Part shown: in pieces, positions 228 to 56,300 of the stretch | How the letters are laid out: each line of letters begins with the position of its first letter | How positions within the stretch are numbered: position 1 is the first letter of the stretch | From: an uncultured virus (IMG/VR IMGVR_UViG_2061766007_000665) | Taxonomy: Duplodnaviria; Heunggongvirae; Uroviricota; Caudoviricetes | Length of the DNA: 64,000 nucleotides | Virus record (IMG/VR): IMGVR_UViG_2061766007_000665 | Direction: 5' to 3' (one strand) | The notes under the pieces: model-generated | Databases searched by the model: none | What the model saw: only the letters and a program-made list of their open reading frames with translations | Told to the model about the DNA's origin: nothing | Position numbers and translations under genes: made by a program

Positions 228-1848
228 GGCTTATCTGATAAGTTGTGTCATTATGTATGGGATGTACTTATTGCTATGAATCGTGGATATGGATTTAACA
301 CATCTCATACCTTGGGCTATTCAATCATAGCGCTACAGGAAGCTAATCTTGCATATCACTATCCCATTATTTATTGGAATTGTGCTAATTTAATTAGTGA
401 TTCTGGTGGAGCAGATAGTACCGTAAACTATGGTAAAATTGCTGCTGCTATTGGTCGTATGCGTAAAGAGGGAATTAAAATTGTTCCTCCGTACATCAAT
501 GAGGCTCGTTTTGGATTTAAGCCAGACGTAGATAATAACGAAATAGTTTATGGTCTTAAGGCCGTAGCTGGTATTGGCGCATCTGTTGCTCAGGCAATAG
601 TAAACAATCAGCCATATAAGTCTATGGCGGACTTCTATGAAAAAATGCAAAATGTAAAAACCGTAGATGACGGATTTACATTCGGTGATACTGCCATGAT
701 TCAGCTAATTAAGGCCGGAGCTTTTGATTTGATAGAGAACAAGCCTCGCGTTAAAATAATGGCCGACTTTGTGCGTAGTATTANNNNNNNNNNNNNNNNN
801 NNNNNNNNNNNNNNNNNNNNNNNNNNNNNNNNNNNNNNNNNNNNNNNNNNNNNNNNNNNNNNNNNNNNNNNNNNNNNNNNNNNNNNNNNNNNNNNNNNNN
901 NNNNNNNNNNNNNNNNNNNNNNNNNNNNNNNNNNNNNNNNNNNNNNNNNNNNNNNNNNNNNNNNNNNNNNNNNNNNNNNNNNNNNNNNNNNNNNNNNNNN
1001 NNNNNNNNNNNNNNNNNNNNNNNNNNNNNNNNNNNNNNNNNNNNNNNTAGACTTGAACCCAAATATGCGGCTCCGTATTTCGAAGAAAATTTTAAGGATT
1101 CGTTAGAAGAATTTAAGGACTACGATTATGATGATCAAGGCTTTTATATCGTTAAGCGTGGTAGCTTCGATAGGGTTTANNNNNNNNNNNNNNNNNNNNN
1201 NNNNNNNNNNNNNNNNNNNNNNNNNNNNNNNNNNNNNNTAAGCTCAAAGTTCTTAATGAGCCAAGGTATCTTAGGGCTGTTAATGAACAAAGGTTTAAAG
1301 ATCTTTGGAAAGAAAAGGCTGCTGGTACAATAGCAAAATGGGAAATGGATTCTCTTTATTACTATTATGGAGAACATGAACTTGCTCACGTAGACCCTCA
1401 TAAATACAATCTTGTAAACTTTGATGATTTGCCAACAGAGCCAGAAGTAGTAGATAATTATTATTATAAGGGTCAGGCGAAGCCAAGATACAATCTTGTC
1501 CAAATAGCAGGAACCGTTATTGACAAAGATAAAAATCATCACACAGTTACTCTTTTAACGGTTGATGGCGTAGTTGTGGTTAAACTTTACAAGGGTCAGT
1601 TTGGTTTTTATGATAGAGAAATATCGGAAGTAAAAGAAGATGGATCGAAAACCAAGATTGAAAAATCATGGTTTAAACGTGGAACAAAGCTAGTTGTTAC
1701 TGGTTTTAGAAGCGAAGAGTATTTCATTCCAAGAAAGTATAGCGATAGTATTTATAATCATACAGTAAGACTTATCAAAAGTATAGATAAAGACAATAAT
1801 TTAGTTATTCAGTCAGAACGTGCTGGAGAGGAAGGAGACACACAGTAA
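228..1848 (+). CDS. dnaE: DNA polymerase III alpha subunit, C-terminal part (interrupted by N gaps)
   Basis: YGFNTSHTLGYS, PPYINEA..F, IVYGLKAVAGIG, LIKAGAFD motifs; C-terminal OB fold (AGTVIDKDKNHHTVTLLT). Confidence 0.9.
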
Positions 1849-10383: not shown

Positions 10384-11202
10384 ATGAAAAAGTATTTTGT
10401 CGTCAGTGACGTTCATGGTTTTTACAACGAACTTCAAACAGCATTAGTCAGTAAGGGCTGGGATATTAATAATCCGGATCATGTTTTTGTATCTCTTGGT
10501 GATCTTCTTGATCGTGGCCCGGATGCTGTAAAGTGCCTCGAATTTGTAAACAGTCTTCCCGATGAAAGAAAAATTTTAATTCTTGGAAACCATGAAGACC
10601 TTATGATAGAGGCACAAAATCGCAAAGAGTTTCGGAGCCACGATATTCATAATGGAACAAATGAAACCTGTTATCAGATTTTTTCGTCAATTTATGGCGA
10701 CCAGGATTATATGATGAGCGCCACTGACGATGAAGTGCTTAGGATTGTTCAACATAGTGATATATGGACCAAATATTACAACTCATGCGTTAATTACGCA
10801 GAGGTGGGAAATAATATTTTTGTACACGGATGGATTCCTGTTGCATATAAGTCAGATGAATACGGTATCATAGAGAATGTTAAAAACCCCAAATGGAGAA
10901 ATGCGTCTGAAGCATTGTGGCGTAAGGCTCGCTGGTTTAATGGTATGGAAATGTGGGCCTGCGGCATTAGAGAAAAGGGGCACACTATTTGGTGCGGTCA
11001 TTGGCATGCGTCTTGGGGACATGCAAATCTTCATCATGATGGGGTTGAATTTTTAAAGCCGATCGAAACTTATTATCTTGATGAATATGGAGTTAAGCAC
11101 CCGTATGCTAAGTTTACTCCTTTTGAAGATGCTGGTATTAAATGTATAGATGCATGTACTGCCTATAGTGGGTTTGTCAATTGTGAGGTTATAGAAGAAT
11201 GA
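10384..11202 (+). CDS. Calcineurin-like metallophosphoesterase (Ser/Thr phosphatase-like)
   Basis: SDVHG, GDLLDRG, GNHE, VHG, GHWH. Confidence 0.9.
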   Translation: MKKYFVVSDVHGFYNELQTALVSKGWDINNPDHVFVSLGDLLDRGPDAVKCLEFVNSLPDERKILILGNHEDLMIEAQNRKEFRSHDIHNGTNETCYQIFSSIYGDQDYMMSATDDEVLRIVQHSDIWTKYYNSCVNYAEVGNNIFVHGWIPVAYKSDEYGIIENVKNPKWRNASEALWRKARWFNGMEMWACGIREKGHTIWCGHWHASWGHANLHHDGVEFLKPIETYYLDEYGVKHPYAKFTPFEDAGIKCIDACTAYSGFVNCEVIEE

Positions 11203-11475
11203 AAGACGATAAAGACTTTGGCTTGATCGTTAATTCTGCGGTTAGATATGCTTGCGGACGCCGTACTTATATAGTCGGCGTCGTTTGCAATTATGTAAAA
11301 CGTCATATAGATGATTTGAGCGAACATGATTTAGAAAACATTATTTTATCTATTGAGTCAAAACGAGACGCAGAATATATTGAAGAGCCTCTTGGAGATC
11401 CATGTGATGCTGAAAAATGGATCACGTTGCTAGATTTTCTTAAAAAAGAATTAGAAAAATATAATTAATTTTTAA

Positions 11476-11510
11476 AAACGCTTGACTTTAGCTTTTCTTT
11501 ATGTTATACT
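11476..11510 (+). promoter_or_regulatory. Sigma-A-type promoter, TTGACTTTAGC class
   Basis: TTGACT 11482, 17-bp spacer, TGT-TATACT 11505. Confidence 0.85.
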
Positions 11511-11535
11511 AACAACATAAGTGAGGTAATTATTT

Positions 11536-12550
11536 ATGGCAAAATTGTATATGCTTATTGGACTTCCGGGTTCGGGTAAAACAAGCTGGGCGAATGATCA
11601 TGCTGATGCGTATAATGCAAAGGTCATGTCTTCTGATGCATTTAGACGCCTTGTTTGTGGCAGTGAAGAAGACCAAACCCGCAATAATGAGGNNNNNNNN
11701 NNNNNNNNNNNNNNGCGTAGCAACGCTTTTGGAGAATGGTAGAGATGTTATTTATGATGCCACAAATCTAACCAGAAAAAATCGTGAGCGGACTATGAAG
11801 TATATCAATTATAAAGTAAAAAACGTTGAATATACTGCGCTTATCTTTACTACTCCAATTGAAATTTGTAAGGTAAATAATCAAAAACGCACACGTCAAG
11901 TCCCGGGAAAGGTTTACGATCGTATGCTTAGGCAATTTGAAATGCCTTTATATAGCGAAGGATTTGAGCATATACACACTATTGACATATTTACCAGTCT
12001 TTTGAATCCGTATTCATATATAGCTAAAGCATATGATTTTAGTCAGGATCATCCGCGCCATGCAGAAGATTTGTATACGCATTCTATACTTGCGTTATCG
12101 TCTATGACAGAAAATGAACAAGAAATTTATCCGAATCTTTTATGCGCAGCTTTTCTTCATGATATTGGTAAATTATACACTAAGACAATAGACAAAGATG
12201 GGGTTGCTCATTATATCGGGCATGAAAATTATGGGGCATATTTGGCTTTATCTATTGATTATAAGACGGTAAAGAAAATGATATCTTCTATGCTTGAAGA
12301 TGAGGGTGATGTTAGCACATTAAATTCATCAGATATTAATCCGATTGAGGTTGCTACAATTATTAATTGTCATATGATGCCTATCAATTTACAGCAGGGA
12401 TCTATGGAAACCTGTAACAAGAAAAGCGTCCTATTGCAAAATCATTATATGCAGCATAAACGTATTAATGGAGATACTGAGAGATTGTGGGATTCTGTCA
12501 TGACGCTTCATAGATGTGACCTGATGGCATCTCGTCCGGTGAGTAAATAA
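11536..12550 (+). CDS. Polynucleotide kinase (AAA_33) fused to HD phosphohydrolase (ORFs joined across gap)
   Basis: GLPGSGKT, SSD..R, YDATNL..KNR, H..DLYTH, LHDIGK, GHENYGA. Confidence 0.85.
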
Positions 12551-12561
12551 AGGAGAAAGTA

Positions 12562-13257
12562 ATGGGTTTTGATGCTTGGATTAATGTGTATCCTCGTTAT
12601 AAAAATTATACTATAGAAGACATAGAGACTGTTGAAAAGTATTTTAATTATGAAAAAAGCGAGGGACTTCAAAAGGCTTACACTTTAGAACAATATCTTG
12701 AAGGGAAAACCGTAGATAAAGATGCGGTTGAGTTTTACCGGAATTTCTTGCACAACGAGTCAGAATTTCTGCGCAATGTAATTTATAAAGAAAAAGCCAG
12801 TTGGTGTTCTAATGGCACGCGCCTGTATCATATTATTGAAAATTATAAATATGGAGACAGTGCGCGTGATACTCCTACAGAATTTGAACTTACCAAAGAC
12901 GATTTAATTCATATAATCAACAAATGCGTTAAAAATTTTAAGGACATTAGTGTTCCAAAAGATTGCTATATAAACAATGCTTTTAGAGATGTTCAGCAGT
13001 GTGATTACTATGATGGCGAATCNNNNNNNNNNNNNNTAATGTATCCTTGCGACGGTGTTGTTCTGACAGACAGAGATGGAAACGAACACACAAAATATAC
13101 GTCTGAATGTGCGTATGATGGAGAATTTTGGCTTACTGTAATGTCTTCTGATGAAGATGATTACATAAATTATATGGGCTACCTTGTAGCTCTTGTAGAG
13201 TGTCTTACTACGGTAGATTTTGAAAAAGAAATGGTAGTGTATGGAGGTGGATGGTAA
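12562..13257 (+). CDS. Hypothetical phage protein
   Basis: AAGGAG RBS, 231-aa ORF. Confidence 0.7.
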   Translation: MGFDAWINVYPRYKNYTIEDIETVEKYFNYEKSEGLQKAYTLEQYLEGKTVDKDAVEFYRNFLHNESEFLRNVIYKEKASWCSNGTRLYHIIENYKYGDSARDTPTEFELTKDDLIHIINKCVKNFKDISVPKDCYINNAFRDVQQCDYYDGEXXXXXXMYPCDGVVLTDRDGNEHTKYTSECAYDGEFWLTVMSSDEDDYINYMGYLVALVECLTTVDFEKEMVVYGGGW

Positions 13258-13431
13258 TGTCTAAAGTTAGCTATACAGAATGCGATGTATGCGGTAAGCC
13301 AATAAATTCAATGCACGGAAAATTTGTTATTAAAAATGAAGCTGGCAGAAATGGATTTGAATTTACTCGTAAATTAGACATCTGCTCAGATTGCTGGCAT
13401 AAAATCCATAAGTATATCGAGGAAAATAAAA

Positions 13432-14595
13432 ATGTTGGTTGATGGAAAAAGAGAACTTGCATATACTGCAAAAATTACTAAAGTTGCACCGATCGAAGGC
13501 GCCGATAACATTGAACTTGTCACTATTAATGATGGATGGAAGTGCATTGCAAAGAAAACTGAATTTAATGAGGGAGATACTTGCGTATATTTTGAAATAG
13601 ACAGCAAACTCCCAGAGAAGGAATGGTCTGAGTTCCTTAGATCAAAAAAATTTAAGGTTAAGACTATGAAGCTTGGTAAATTTGGTGTGGCTTCTCAGGG
13701 GCTTGCTCTTCCTATTAATGCTTTTACAGACGATGTTATACCAACCGATATTGGGATTCCTCTTACGACAAAACTTGGGGTTACTTATGGAGTAGAAGAA
13801 GATAACGACAGAAAGGCATCTAGTTCCGATCTTAAATATAAGTCTATGGCAAGTAGACATCCAAACCTTGCAAAGACTTGGTGGTGGAGAAAGATTTGGA
13901 AAATGCCGCATGGTAAGCAAATCTTATTTTTGCTCTTTGGTAAAAAGAAAGATAAGCCGCTCGCTTTCCCCGCTTTTGTTAAAAAAACTGACGAAGAGCG
14001 TATTGAAAACGAACCTTGGCGCATTGGTGATAAAAAGATTTACCTTGCTACTGAAAAGCTTGATGGTACCTCTACAACTTTTGCTCTTAAGAAAATTAAG
14101 CGTAATAAATATGAATTCTTTGTATGTTCTCGTAATGTTCGTCAGATGACACCGGAACAGAACTGCGCTCATGACCACAATATTTACTGGGATATGGCAA
14201 TTAAGTATGATATCGAGAACGTATTAAGAACGCTGCTTATTAATTATAATCTTGATTGGATTTGTCTCCAGGGTGAGTCTGTTGGAAGTGTGCAGGGTAA
14301 TCCTCTTAAGCTTGATCACGATGATTTCTATGGATTCAATTTAATTTTTTCCGATCGTGGAAGACTCCCCTCTGATATTTCAGCAGATTACATGAAGGAT
14401 TACGGAATTAAGTGGGTTCCCATTCTTGGTGAAATGACAATTCCCAATACAATGGAAGAAGCAAAAAAGCAGGCTTATGGCAAGTCTATTGTAAACCCTG
14501 CTGTACTCCGCGAAGGAATTGTATATCGTAGCCTTGATGGTCAGGATAGCTTTAAAAACGTGTCTGTTGAGTACCTTTTGAAACATAACGGATAA
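13432..14595 (+). CDS. ATP-dependent RNA ligase (Rnl2/DRB0094-like, N-terminal OB domain)
   Basis: PIEGADNIE, YFEIDS, SQGL, KTDEERI, TEKLDGTS, QGE, REGIV, SFKNVS..YL. Confidence 0.9.
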   Translation: MLVDGKRELAYTAKITKVAPIEGADNIELVTINDGWKCIAKKTEFNEGDTCVYFEIDSKLPEKEWSEFLRSKKFKVKTMKLGKFGVASQGLALPINAFTDDVIPTDIGIPLTTKLGVTYGVEEDNDRKASSSDLKYKSMASRHPNLAKTWWWRKIWKMPHGKQILFLLFGKKKDKPLAFPAFVKKTDEERIENEPWRIGDKKIYLATEKLDGTSTTFALKKIKRNKYEFFVCSRNVRQMTPEQNCAHDHNIYWDMAIKYDIENVLRTLLINYNLDWICLQGESVGSVQGNPLKLDHDDFYGFNLIFSDRGRLPSDISADYMKDYGIKWVPILGEMTIPNTMEEAKKQAYGKSIVNPAVLREGIVYRSLDGQDSFKNVSVEYLLKHNG

Positions 14596-16168: not shown

Positions 16169-17246
16169 ATTAAAAATTTGGCTAAAAGAACAAATCAAAG
16201 AANNNNNNNNNNNNNNNNNNNNNNNNNNNNNNNNNNNNNNNNNNNCTCAAAGCACGGACAAAGAGTTGCTTATGAGAGGGTGCTTAAACTGATAGAATAA
16301 AAGTTAATGACTATGATTAATGAAACAGAAAAATTAATTGGCAAAACAATTAGCAAAATTGAAATTGATGGGTATGGTGTCTATATTAAGTTTACAGACG
16401 ATACTGAGCTTGAATATAGTGCTAGTGATGGTGGTTATTCTTCTTGGGGAATAATTGAATAAAAAGGCTAGATCATCGTTTTTATGAATAATTATGATTA
16501 GAGTAAATTGCTGTGATAATTGTATACATTATACTTGGTACACAGATTATTGTGATCAATGGAAGTGCACGGTTGATGGGGCATATTGCTGTCACATGTT
16601 TAAGATTTGGCCTAGTTTAAAGTATAAAGGAGCAAGGGGCAATGGTGGAATACAACCTGAGAAAAAACATTAGAGCTTATCAATGGGGTGTGGATCCTAC
16701 GATGACCATACTTGAGAATTGCGGTAGATATATTAGAAATGCCCATCTTCGAAAGCGCGGCAAAGATGGCCAATTAAAGCATCTTATGGCCATGACTTGC
16801 ACGACATGCAAGGGTAGATGGCTTACTCTTGAAGATAAAGACTGGATTATTGTTGAGGACATTGGCGGTAACGATACTTGGGAAGTGACTGATGTTCTTG
16901 GTGATGAAGAATTCCAGTGGCGCTATAAAAGGGTTTAATTAGCAGCTTATGAAAAGAGGTTTTGATATGAGAGATATTGCTCGTATTGATAAGTTTTGCG
17001 ATCAGCTTAAAGAAGAGTGGAAGAAGTACCCAGATTATCGTTTTGGCCAAATGATTATGAATGTATTTGGCGAAATGGCTAAAAGTGGCAAAGATCCCTT
17101 CTTCCCGGAAGACGAAGAAATGATGAAGGCCATTAAAGCGCACCTTAACAAAATTGCTTTATATAGATGATAACGCATTAGCGATATCATATATTAAAGG
17201 GAGTACCTTTGCGGCGGCTCAGGTTTNNNNNNNNNNNNNNNNNNNN

Positions 17247-17322
17247 NNNNNNNNNNNNNNNNNNNNNNNNNGACGGCCTTATAAGCCGTGCGTACCTGGT
17301 TCAACTCCAGGGAGGAGGACCA
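17247..17322 (+). tRNA. tRNA-Ile(UAU), 5' part in gap (start estimated)
   Basis: acggc-ctTATaa-gccgt anticodon arm, cctgg-ttcaact-ccagg T arm, 3' ACCA. Confidence 0.85.
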
Positions 17323-17358
17323 TTAAAAAATATCACATTTTTTGAAAAATTTTTTTGA

Positions 17359-17393
17359 AAACGCTTGACTTTAGCTTTAAAATGTGATATAGT
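17359..17393 (+). promoter_or_regulatory. Promoter driving the ncRNA/tRNA island, TTGACTTTAGC class
   Basis: TTGACT 17365, 17 bp, TGA-TATAGT 17388. Confidence 0.85.
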
Positions 17394-17427
17394 ATATTTG
17401 TAAGTGAGAGAGATCCACTTACAGAAC

Positions 17428-17988
17428 CTTGAAAAAAGCATANNNNNNNNNNNNNCCGAGAAGCTACTGAATAATGAGGCCGTGATCCAGGGATACCTGA
17501 GGAGCGAGCCTTCGGAATATCAGCGATGGTATAATGGAAGAGGGAGCATAAACCTCAACGTTAAGGTGGCTGTGCTGAGATATATGGTGTATAAGATACG
17601 GTGTGCGCGGTTGCAAAAATAGANNNNNNNNNNNNNNNNNNNNNNNNNNNNNNNNNNNNCTAACGGGAGTTAGTAAGTAAATCTGGTAATCCAAACTAAT
17701 GCGATCCGTCATGAGAGCCTTCGAAAGAGGGCTATAACGCGACAGCCGGTAAAAGTAGCCAAACGACGGTGGAAGAAAATGAATTCTATGATGGAGAATT
17801 AACTACACTGAATGTCTGGTGAAATTTGCAGGTATCAGACCTGTCTGTGCATGGGCCGTAGGCGAGGCAATAAGTTAGGGGTCGCTCCCCAAAGCTCAGT
17901 ATTGCTTCCACAGTGATCGAATATACAGTAATATAGGTAGGTAAGGCGAAGGCCTAAGATGTGTTATAGACAATGTGCTTTTTTCAAG
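17428..17988 (+). ncRNA. ROOL-like large ornate ncRNA (~560 nt)
   Basis: Perfect 13-bp terminal pairing cttgaaaaaagca/tgcttttttcaag; ordered motifs gggatac, tccaaac, cggtaaaagtagc, ctgaatgt..gtgaaa, ggggtcgctcccc..gctcag, gtgatcgaata, gcctaa recalled from ROOL; tRNA-cluster context. Confidence 0.75.
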
Positions 17989-18004
17989 CGAACTTTGACA
18001 ACAT

Positions 18005-18131
18005 GAAGAAGTGGCGGAATGGTGTAGACGCTTACGCGAATAAGATTGCCTCTGGCTCTTAGCCAGGTTTGGCGGCACATCTACTGTATGTGTGAAGTGC
18101 AATCATGTTTGGTTCAAATCCTAACCTTCTC
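18005..18131 (+). ncRNA. tRNA-mimic RNA with branched insert instead of anticodon arm
   Basis: D-arm gtggcggaatggtgtagacgc, T-loop ggttcaaatcc, agaag/cttct acceptor, gattgc/gcaatc stem enclosing two hairpins, no CCA. Confidence 0.55.
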
Positions 18132-18142
18132 TAATATTATAT

Positions 18143-18229
18143 CCGGATGTGGCGGAATCGGCAGACGCAGCGGACTTAAAATCCGCCGGTGTTATAACCA
18201 TGCCAGTTCAAGTCTGGCCATCCGGACCA
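18143..18229 (+). tRNA. tRNA-Leu(UAA)
   Basis: ccggatg/catccgg acceptor, gcgga-ctTAAaa-tccgc, long V arm, ACCA. Confidence 0.95.
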
Positions 18230-18400
18230 TAATTGAGAAGAGACCTCAATTTATTGTATACAATAAAGAATGTCTCCATGAGATGCGAAACTCCAGAAAG
18301 TTCTCTTGTACGGGACCGTACGAAAAAGCCGTTACTAGTAAACCGAAGAACGTAAAATACGGTGCATGTTGGTAATCGTACGAGGATTGACCAACAACTT

Positions 18401-18908
18401 GTCAACATAGTGTAATGGATAGCACGCTTACTGGTTTCGACTGGTAGGAAGTATAGGTTCAAATCCTATTATTGGCTTATTGGAAGGTAATCTTCCCTGT
18501 CCGTGCTATATTTCACTCCTTTATAAGTGGACGGCAGTAACATTAAAGAGAGTCGTGGATCAGTGAGCACGTAACAAAAACTGTGAGTTAGTGGTGATTG
18601 GACAAGTATAAATCCCACCAGCAAGACCCACGCTGCGAGAGGGGTTGCTACCATACAAGGGCAACAACGCCTATGGTGAGCAAAGTATGGCGAAATGAAC
18701 CACCGTCAAAGGTTTCTAGGTAGCTGCAGTATATCCTAGTTTTAGTTATTGGACAGACTGGCATTAACCGGGATGCGTGGAAAACCTACCGTGAATAGTG
18801 AAATAATCTATTTGGGATTAAGTAGGAGATATGGGTAGATATATTCCGATAACTAAAATCCAGATCCTCATGTTTAGCAATTTCATCGAGAGGGAAAAGA
18901 AATTGCTT
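18401..18908 (+). ncRNA. GOLLD-like large ncRNA (compact, ~500 nt) with 5' tRNA-like domain
   Basis: tRNA-like 18401-18476 with UUCG-capped extended stem; motifs aaatcc..gcaagacc..gcgag and gactggcattaaccggg recalled from GOLLD; 14-bp stem 18740-18753/18845-18858. Confidence 0.6.
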
Positions 18909-56224: not shown

Positions 56225-56300
56225 TGGTCCTCCACCGAGGGGTTGAACCTCGCACACATGGCTTATAAGGCCACTGCTCTCACCACTGAGCTAGTAGAGG
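56225..56300 (-). tRNA. tRNA-Ile(UAU), second copy
   Basis: cctctac/gtggagg acceptor, gtggc-ctTATaa-gccat, cgagg-ttcaacc-cctcg, ACCA. Confidence 0.93.

Follow-up and report, generated by a model that had tools for sequence, protein, structure and literature searches.

A probable ROOL RNA gene, divergent in sequence, in the tRNA island of a large uncultured bovine-gut phage

Identity and boundaries of the element

At positions 17428-17988 on the plus strand of the window, the 64,000-nt stretch of uncultured-virus DNA analysed here (IMG/VR IMGVR_UViG_2061766007_000665; Caudoviricetes), we identified what is very probably (about 85%) the gene for a ROOL RNA (Rfam RF03087) of a large uncultured bovine-gut phage. 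Membership of the element in the ROOL family, taken by itself, is nearly certain. A reading made earlier from the sequence alone (hereafter the sequence-only reading) had proposed a ROOL-like noncoding RNA at this position and named the Rfam ROOL model as the way to check it. When we ran that comparison, the RF03087 covariance model aligned over its whole length (model positions 1-574 of 574) to 17413-17975 (+) with a score of 216.9 bits (E 1e-47), well above the gathering score of 99.1 bits, which supports the proposal. The match contains 49 masked bases, and its score is lowered because of them; these Ns lie in two runs, 17443-17455 and 17624-17659, exactly where the sequence-only reading had placed them, and the two are among 45 such runs in the window. 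Scanning 16900-18500 at E up to 1 recovered the ROOL match again and gave no other Rfam family over the ROOL element and no ribozyme family 5' of it. GOLLD gave no match in the window at its gathering score, nor in 16900-18500 at E up to 1.

The ends of the element had been drawn at a perfect 13-bp terminal pairing, and this pairing held up in full: 17428-17440 and 17976-17988 are 100% complementary, with arms 535 nt apart. The corresponding features are as follows.

17428-17988 (+): gene for the ROOL RNA, bounded by the outermost pair of P1; 561 nt including 49 Ns; identified by RF03087, P1, and the family alignment with its covarying fold
17428-17442 (+): P1 5' strand; a perfect 13-bp stretch followed by U-G and A-U, up to the first N run
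17974-17988 (+): P1 3' strand; reaches 13 nt past the 3' end of the Rfam match

No perfect inverted repeat in 17380-18020 is longer than the one formed by the P1 arms. When the sequence, with Ns removed, was shuffled 300 times with its dinucleotides preserved, a 13-bp repeat arose anywhere in only 2 shuffles, and with arms at least 500 nt apart in none. By direct reading, the pairs U17441-G17975 and A17442-U17974 lengthen P1 to 15 pairs, at which point it reaches the first N run. The sequence with which the P1 of the window begins, CCTTGAAA...TTTCAAG, is also seen in relatives, and the window groups with those of the CCTTGAAA form. Likewise, in all six control ROOLs a CCTTGA-type word opens the closing helix and its complement ends it, outside the ends of the Rfam match. 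A strict helix search placed a terminal helix at the P1 position in most of 61 distinct relatives, with a few calls weak or doubtful. As the P1 sequences differ between relatives, the helix covaries as a whole.

The Rfam model mis-registers the outer helix of the ROOL in the window; its alignment sets this helix further 5', with many non-standard pairs, and ends at 17975, missing the perfect stem. We therefore define the element as 17428-17988, because the 13-bp stem is the family P1 and carries the start word of the relatives, and on this ground the boundaries of the sequence-only reading are to be preferred to the 17413-17975 of Rfam. The resulting length of 561 nt falls among those of relatives measured alike (528-769 nt).

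Near-identical sequence is present in four bovine-gut sequencing runs from four studies, one of which is an RNA library. A 354-nt contig of this metatranscriptomic library matches 17660-17957 with 0 differences; the contig gives no ends, strand or level, and as an RNA library may hold DNA, it is evidence of presence rather than proof of transcription. DNA runs of two further studies match the ROOL with 0 and 1 differences, and the DNA run that matches best may be the source sample itself. The variant A17716G occurs in one contig at a depth of 4.84 and may be an error. As to read cover, RNA run X6 has none on the unique spacers by the ROOL and DNA run X1 covers 30 of 30 bins; we draw nothing from either.

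Fold, conserved blocks and inter-subunit contacts

To examine the fold independently of Rfam, we built a MAFFT alignment (A2) of the window and 26 relatives, picked from 59 sequences so that redundancy stayed below 92% identity. RNAalifold on these 27 members gave 72 consensus pairs, 60 of which show, in at least one sequence, changes on both sides with the pair kept. These compensatory changes bear on an alternative in which the region is protein-coding, or is some other non-ROOL element structured by chance. Open reading frames of 72 aa (+) and 82 aa (-) do overlap the region, but both cross N stretches and neither spans the whole element; they are the longest over it, which bears out the earlier statement that it holds no credible ORF. 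Together with the full-length model match and the absence of any other Rfam family at E up to 1, the compensatory changes effectively refute this alternative, to which we assign a negligible probability.

Of the 72 consensus pairs, 59 are kept in the window, 7 are broken, and the remaining 6 have gaps or Ns. The other 26 rows of A2 keep 33-72 pairs, the other divergent members among them 55-65. For four of these 59, MAFFT had placed the P1 of the window beneath the family P2, a misplacement that arose because Ns hide the true 5' strand of P2. The sequence-only reading had also described many GNRA and UUCG hairpins, and this description stands in part. In the Rfam and RNAalifold structures, four GNRA tetraloops close helices (GATA 17492-17495, GCGA 17523-17526, GAAA 17723-17726 and GAAG 17948-17951); the UUCG strings, at 17511-17514 and 17720-17723, are not tetraloops in the consensus structure.

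All of the near-invariant blocks of the family are found in the window: GGGATAC, AATAGA, TATAAC, AAAGTAGCC, CTGAATG, GGTGAAATTTG, GGGTCGCTCCC, GCTCAG, GAATAT and GGCGAAGGCC. The single departure follows GCTCAG, where the window has TAT in place of the near-invariant ACT of the family. The following features lie within the fold.

17660-17673 (+): hairpin with loop GGGAG (17665-17669); aligns with a family loop that covaries with a downstream strand; abuts the second N run on its 5' side
17689-17695 (+): single strand AATCCAA, in which TCC (17690-17692) complements GGA (17666-17668)
17762-17807 (+): variable linker of ~46 nt, unaligned in A2 and in Rfam; flanking pairs 17758-17761 with 17817-17820
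17878-17890 (+): invariant hairpin GGGGTCGCTCCCC, then GCTCAG; paired in 27 of 27 A2 rows, though relatives were fetched using this hairpin motif and its invariance among them is therefore by selection

Bridge B4, formed by J6/8 with L8, is described in the text of Kretsch et al. 2025 (PMC12286853) as a conserved, covarying quaternary contact in ROOL. By our reading of that text, rather than of a figure, the covarying loop and downstream-strand columns of A2 are this bridge, with the loop as the L8 side. The two vary together across A2 (TGGC/GCCA, TGGT/ACCA, GAGA/TCTC, TGAT/ATCA, TGGA/TCCA), and loops form at least 4 contiguous pairs with their own partners in 20 of the 27 rows, as compared with 12% of 628 mismatched control pairs. 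In the window the candidate contact is GGA/TCC, with 3 pairs where the family norm is 4, and 3 pairs are also reached in 46% of the mismatched controls.

Two other long-range pairings were rejected. I2, which joins 17498-17510 to 17879-17891, was treated as chance, its matching complement being found in only 7 of 62 elements, and I5 (17492-17499 with 17829-17836) is not a family feature, as the TATC partner appears, by eye, in 5 of the 27 A2 rows. A third candidate pairing, I3, would join 17766-17778 to 17902-17914.

The freed RNA would be expected to fold into a flat ROOL monomer, eight copies of which, held together by loop-loop and A-minor contacts, would form a hollow cage of D4 symmetry with the ~46-nt linker inside. 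This linker corresponds to the region that is disordered inside the cage of the solved ROOL (PMC12286853). Reasoning from the conserved blocks and helices, we think it likely that the copy in the window assembles into an octameric cage like those of the solved members; our confidence is weakened by the 3-pair B4-type contact and by the masked bases.

Genomic setting, transcription and relatives

The ROOL lies in a tRNA island and 2.8 kb downstream of the end of an RNA-repair module, whose features are given here with those immediately around the element.

10384-11202 (+): metallophosphoesterase (PHROGs, Pfam)
11558-12550 (+): AAA_33 kinase with HD phosphohydrolase (PHROGs, Pfam)
12562-13257 (+): ORF of unknown function inside the repair module
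13432-14595 (+): RNA ligase with OB domain (PHROGs, Pfam)
17272-17322 (+): 3' two-thirds of a tRNA, recognised by eye; 5-bp stem, 7-nt loop CTTATAA (anticodon TAT), T-arm and encoded CCA
17355-17383 (+): alternative, overlapping promoter-like site; 10 of 12 matches
17365-17393 (+): sigma-70-type promoter-like site with extended -10 TG; consensus match; predicted start near 17400
17399-17423 (+): leader hairpin, between the predicted start and P1
18005-18131 (+): degenerate tRNA-like element, 16 nt after P1; by direct reading and alignment A1 with L158 and L160
18143-25187 (+): tRNA array, 13 ARAGORN calls, the first a tRNA-Leu(TAA) at 18143-18229

Phosphoesterase, kinase-HD and ligase, at 10384-14595 (+), make up a typical RNA end-healing and sealing set. 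Genes of phage type stand on both sides by PHROGs and Pfam: DNA polymerase pieces, a helicase, NrdD, NrdG, an NAD-dependent DNA ligase, thymidylate synthase and a sigma factor. Homology to DNA polymerase falls in two separate ORFs, 243-1106 and 1345-1848 (+), and N runs lie within these ORFs as well as in the space that separates them; the gene at 243-1848 may be split or interrupted, or this may be an effect of masking. The partial tRNA upstream at 17272-17322 loses its 5' part to the N run 17227-17271 and was called by neither ARAGORN nor Rfam, presumably owing to the Ns; together with the 13 same-strand tRNAs downstream, it places the ROOL inside the island. Two tRNAs of the window are unusual in their own right. 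One at 18401-18477 (+) has an oversized anticodon loop, reported by ARAGORN as 'tRNA-???' with a 2-base anticodon and aligned by Rfam as 11 nt against 6 in the model. A lone tRNA-Ile(TAT) at 56225-56300 (-) lies far from the main array and apparently has the same anticodon as the half-masked tRNA upstream of the ROOL.

The promoter and the leader hairpin had both been reported by the sequence-only reading, and we recovered both. The former reads TTGACT-17-TATAGT with TG before the second hexamer (10 of 12 matches), and the latter has perfect 8-bp arms, 17399-17406 and 17416-17423, around a 9-nt loop. In the interval 16800-18600 there are 6 promoter-like sites, where 3.2 would be expected, and no terminator-like site, hence none between the ROOL and the first tRNA. 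We propose that the ROOL has a promoter of its own, from which transcription would start near 17400 and pass first through a short 5' hairpin, and that the transcript, in the absence of a terminator, would continue through the tRNA-like element into the tRNA array. Nucleases that process tRNAs would then free the ROOL, with an RNase P cut at the 5' end of the next tRNA or tRNA-like element fixing its 3' side. Such a release would fit the relatives, since in many of them tRNAs abut P1 within a few bases. Taken together, transcription from 17365-17393, reading into the tRNA array and trimming by tRNA-processing enzymes form a sequence of events that we consider reasonably likely.

To place this arrangement in the family, we counted tRNA distances at 61 distinct ROOL loci from viral contigs (L001-L080). 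A same-strand tRNA ends within 30 nt before P1 in 41 of the 61 and starts within 30 nt after it in 29, many of these distances being 0-7 nt; a tRNA is present somewhere in the fetched flanks of 54 loci. Neighbour pairs recur, with the orders Met-ROOL-Ser and Thr-ROOL-Ala. The coincidence of tRNA and ROOL ends suggests that tRNA-processing nucleases define the ends of the ROOL. The window differs from most relatives in that neither end of its ROOL adjoins a called tRNA, the closest being one that begins 154 nt downstream, and the promoter and hairpin occupy the site where most relatives have a tRNA.

These same observations could be read to mean that the ROOL is a structured 5' leader of the tRNA operon which protects the precursor or guides its maturation in cis, the cage being incidental. 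A promoter of its own, the lack of a detected terminator, the tRNA array directly downstream and the 0-7 nt that separate ROOL from tRNA in many relatives all agree with such a role, as does the suggestion of Weinberg et al. 2017 (PMC5737381) that the proximity of ROOL to tRNAs could reflect co-transcription. However, a same-strand tRNA within 300 nt is absent upstream in 16 and downstream in 22 of the 61 relatives, and related phages run tRNA islands without a ROOL. Moreover, the solved ROOL cages are described as very stable at nanomolar concentration, and with their conserved, covarying inter-subunit contacts they point to selection on assembly itself (PMC12286853). We therefore regard a cis scaffold as very unlikely and keep to a ROOL that would be freed from the transcript and assemble.

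The tRNA-like element behind the ROOL, uncalled by ARAGORN and Rfam, has class-II D-arm and T-arm motifs and an insertion of ~42 nt before a possible anticodon arm; the copy in the window has acceptor mismatches and is without CCA. Elements laid out in the same way stand behind each of the two ROOLs of a 402-kb phage record, at L158:1354-1493 (-) and L160:1356-1494 (-), and in these the acceptor stem, encoded CCA and 7-nt anticodon loops (one with TAA, one with GTA) are intact. Across the three elements the insertion between D-arm and anticodon arm measures ~42-50 nt, and among 62 ROOL loci only these three (the window, L158 and L160) have a D-arm to T-arm spacing above 75 nt. When folded, these elements reached z-scores of only -0.85 to -1.21. 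The 402-kb record itself (G009; L039, L053, L158, L160), estimated complete, carries its two ROOLs ~204 kb apart, with scores of 328 and 313 bits. One could imagine the ROOL and the tRNA-like element as a single mobile functional unit, in which the cage carries or displays the tRNA-like cargo and, with the repair enzymes, shields or decoys phage tRNAs from host anticodon nucleases. A tRNA-like element as natural cargo would parallel the engineered 3' tRNA fusions to ROOL; we nonetheless offer this as a speculation and judge it improbable.

The ROOL of the window shares no more than 54% identity with any of 58 others, and its 217 bits are the lowest score obtained here, five control records scoring 286-399 bits. 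Its 3' part is unmatched in 50,697 records of cultured phages, and the best match of the RNA ligase of the window among cultured phages is 34% identical. A core motif retrieved 89 viral stretches, the best of them 70-79% identical over patches of ~110-130 nt, and a lineage-specific pattern retrieved 5 loci from metagenome contigs, none close to the ROOL of the window. BLAST of the ROOL found no match within 7 kb of the ligase in 65 RNA-ligase relatives (49-59% identity), and the ROOL model found none in 7 whole related phage records (5 + 2) while matching 5 of 5 positive controls; these absences are indicative only, as the relatives share 49-67% protein identity and some of the records are fragments. 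Its absence from the nearest phages found suggests that, within this phage group, the ROOL is an accessory cassette. One relative (L092:1992-2189) carries a drum RNA (75 bits) and a skipping-rope RNA (61 bits) back to back in its tRNA island, upstream of the RNA ligase, so that structured RNAs of various kinds are found in the tRNA islands of this phage group.

This divergence raises the question of whether the element is a decaying relic, descended from a ROOL and carried along in the tRNA island after losing assembly and function. Consistent with decay are the low score (217 as against 286-399 bits in the controls), the 7 broken consensus pairs, the 3-pair B4-type contact, the changed near-invariant triplet and the degenerate look of the adjoining tRNA-like element; absence from all 7 related phage records would further make the ROOL dispensable in this lineage. 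Against decay, all of the long conserved blocks are intact, four GNRA loops close helices, P1 is perfect over 13 pairs and a strong promoter-like site is present. The number of kept pairs is similar to the 55-65 of other divergent members, the score is depressed by the 49 masked bases, and an exact copy occurs in the RNA-library contig. On balance a relic appears quite unlikely, and we favour an intact ROOL gene.

Possible function and comparison with known systems

Atomic structures of ROOL have been solved ahead of any function, and every natural copy in a clear setting therefore adds to its context. The placement here is clear, at the head of a phage tRNA array and beside an RNA end-healing and sealing module, and a lineage as divergent as this one could test which inter-subunit contacts ROOL truly requires. 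The family-wide count adds that ROOL ends usually coincide with tRNA ends, pointing to tRNA-processing nucleases as the makers of the termini. The copy in the window overturns nothing known, and amounts to routine annotation with useful comparative numbers. Kretsch et al. suggest that ROOL encapsulates tRNAs, ribosomes or other molecules (PMC12286853). As the ROOL of the window is placed with phage tRNAs and an RNA-repair module, our own guess, which we give one chance in three, is that the cage may serve the tRNA and translation take-over programme of the phage.

The solved ROOL of Kretsch et al. 2025 (PMC12286853) is described as a homo-octameric cage of D4 symmetry, ~280 Å across, with a disordered linker inside, and the same text places ROOL in phage and tRNA-island contexts. 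Solved members include env-120, from cow rumen (PMC12286853), and those of E. faecalis and Firmicutes CAG:227 (Ling et al., as given in PMC12515178); according to the summary of Ling et al. in PMC12515178, fusing a tRNA precursor to the 3' end leaves the ROOL octamer undisturbed. GOLLD, a large ornate RNA of phages and prophages found near tRNAs and a former of 14-mer cages (PMC12286853), is alike in kind but unrelated to ROOL in sequence and fold. Drum (RF02958) and skipping-rope (RF02924) are small structured RNAs (~80-115 nt) from families unrelated to ROOL, and neither occurs in the window.

Within ROOL, the copy in the window, at 561 nt, is shorter than both env-120 (659 nt) and the family average (581 nt), and its P2 region is shorter than that of the model (25 versus 33 nt). 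It departs from most ROOLs in having its own promoter and leader hairpin and in not abutting an upstream tRNA, and from the family norm in its 3-pair B4-type contact. It resembles its family in the full-length model match, in P1, the conserved blocks, the covarying helices and the variable linker, and in being carried by a phage, within a tRNA island and in the rumen. It adds an ordinary, if divergent, member to a known family, and comes from the habitat in which ROOL was first found.
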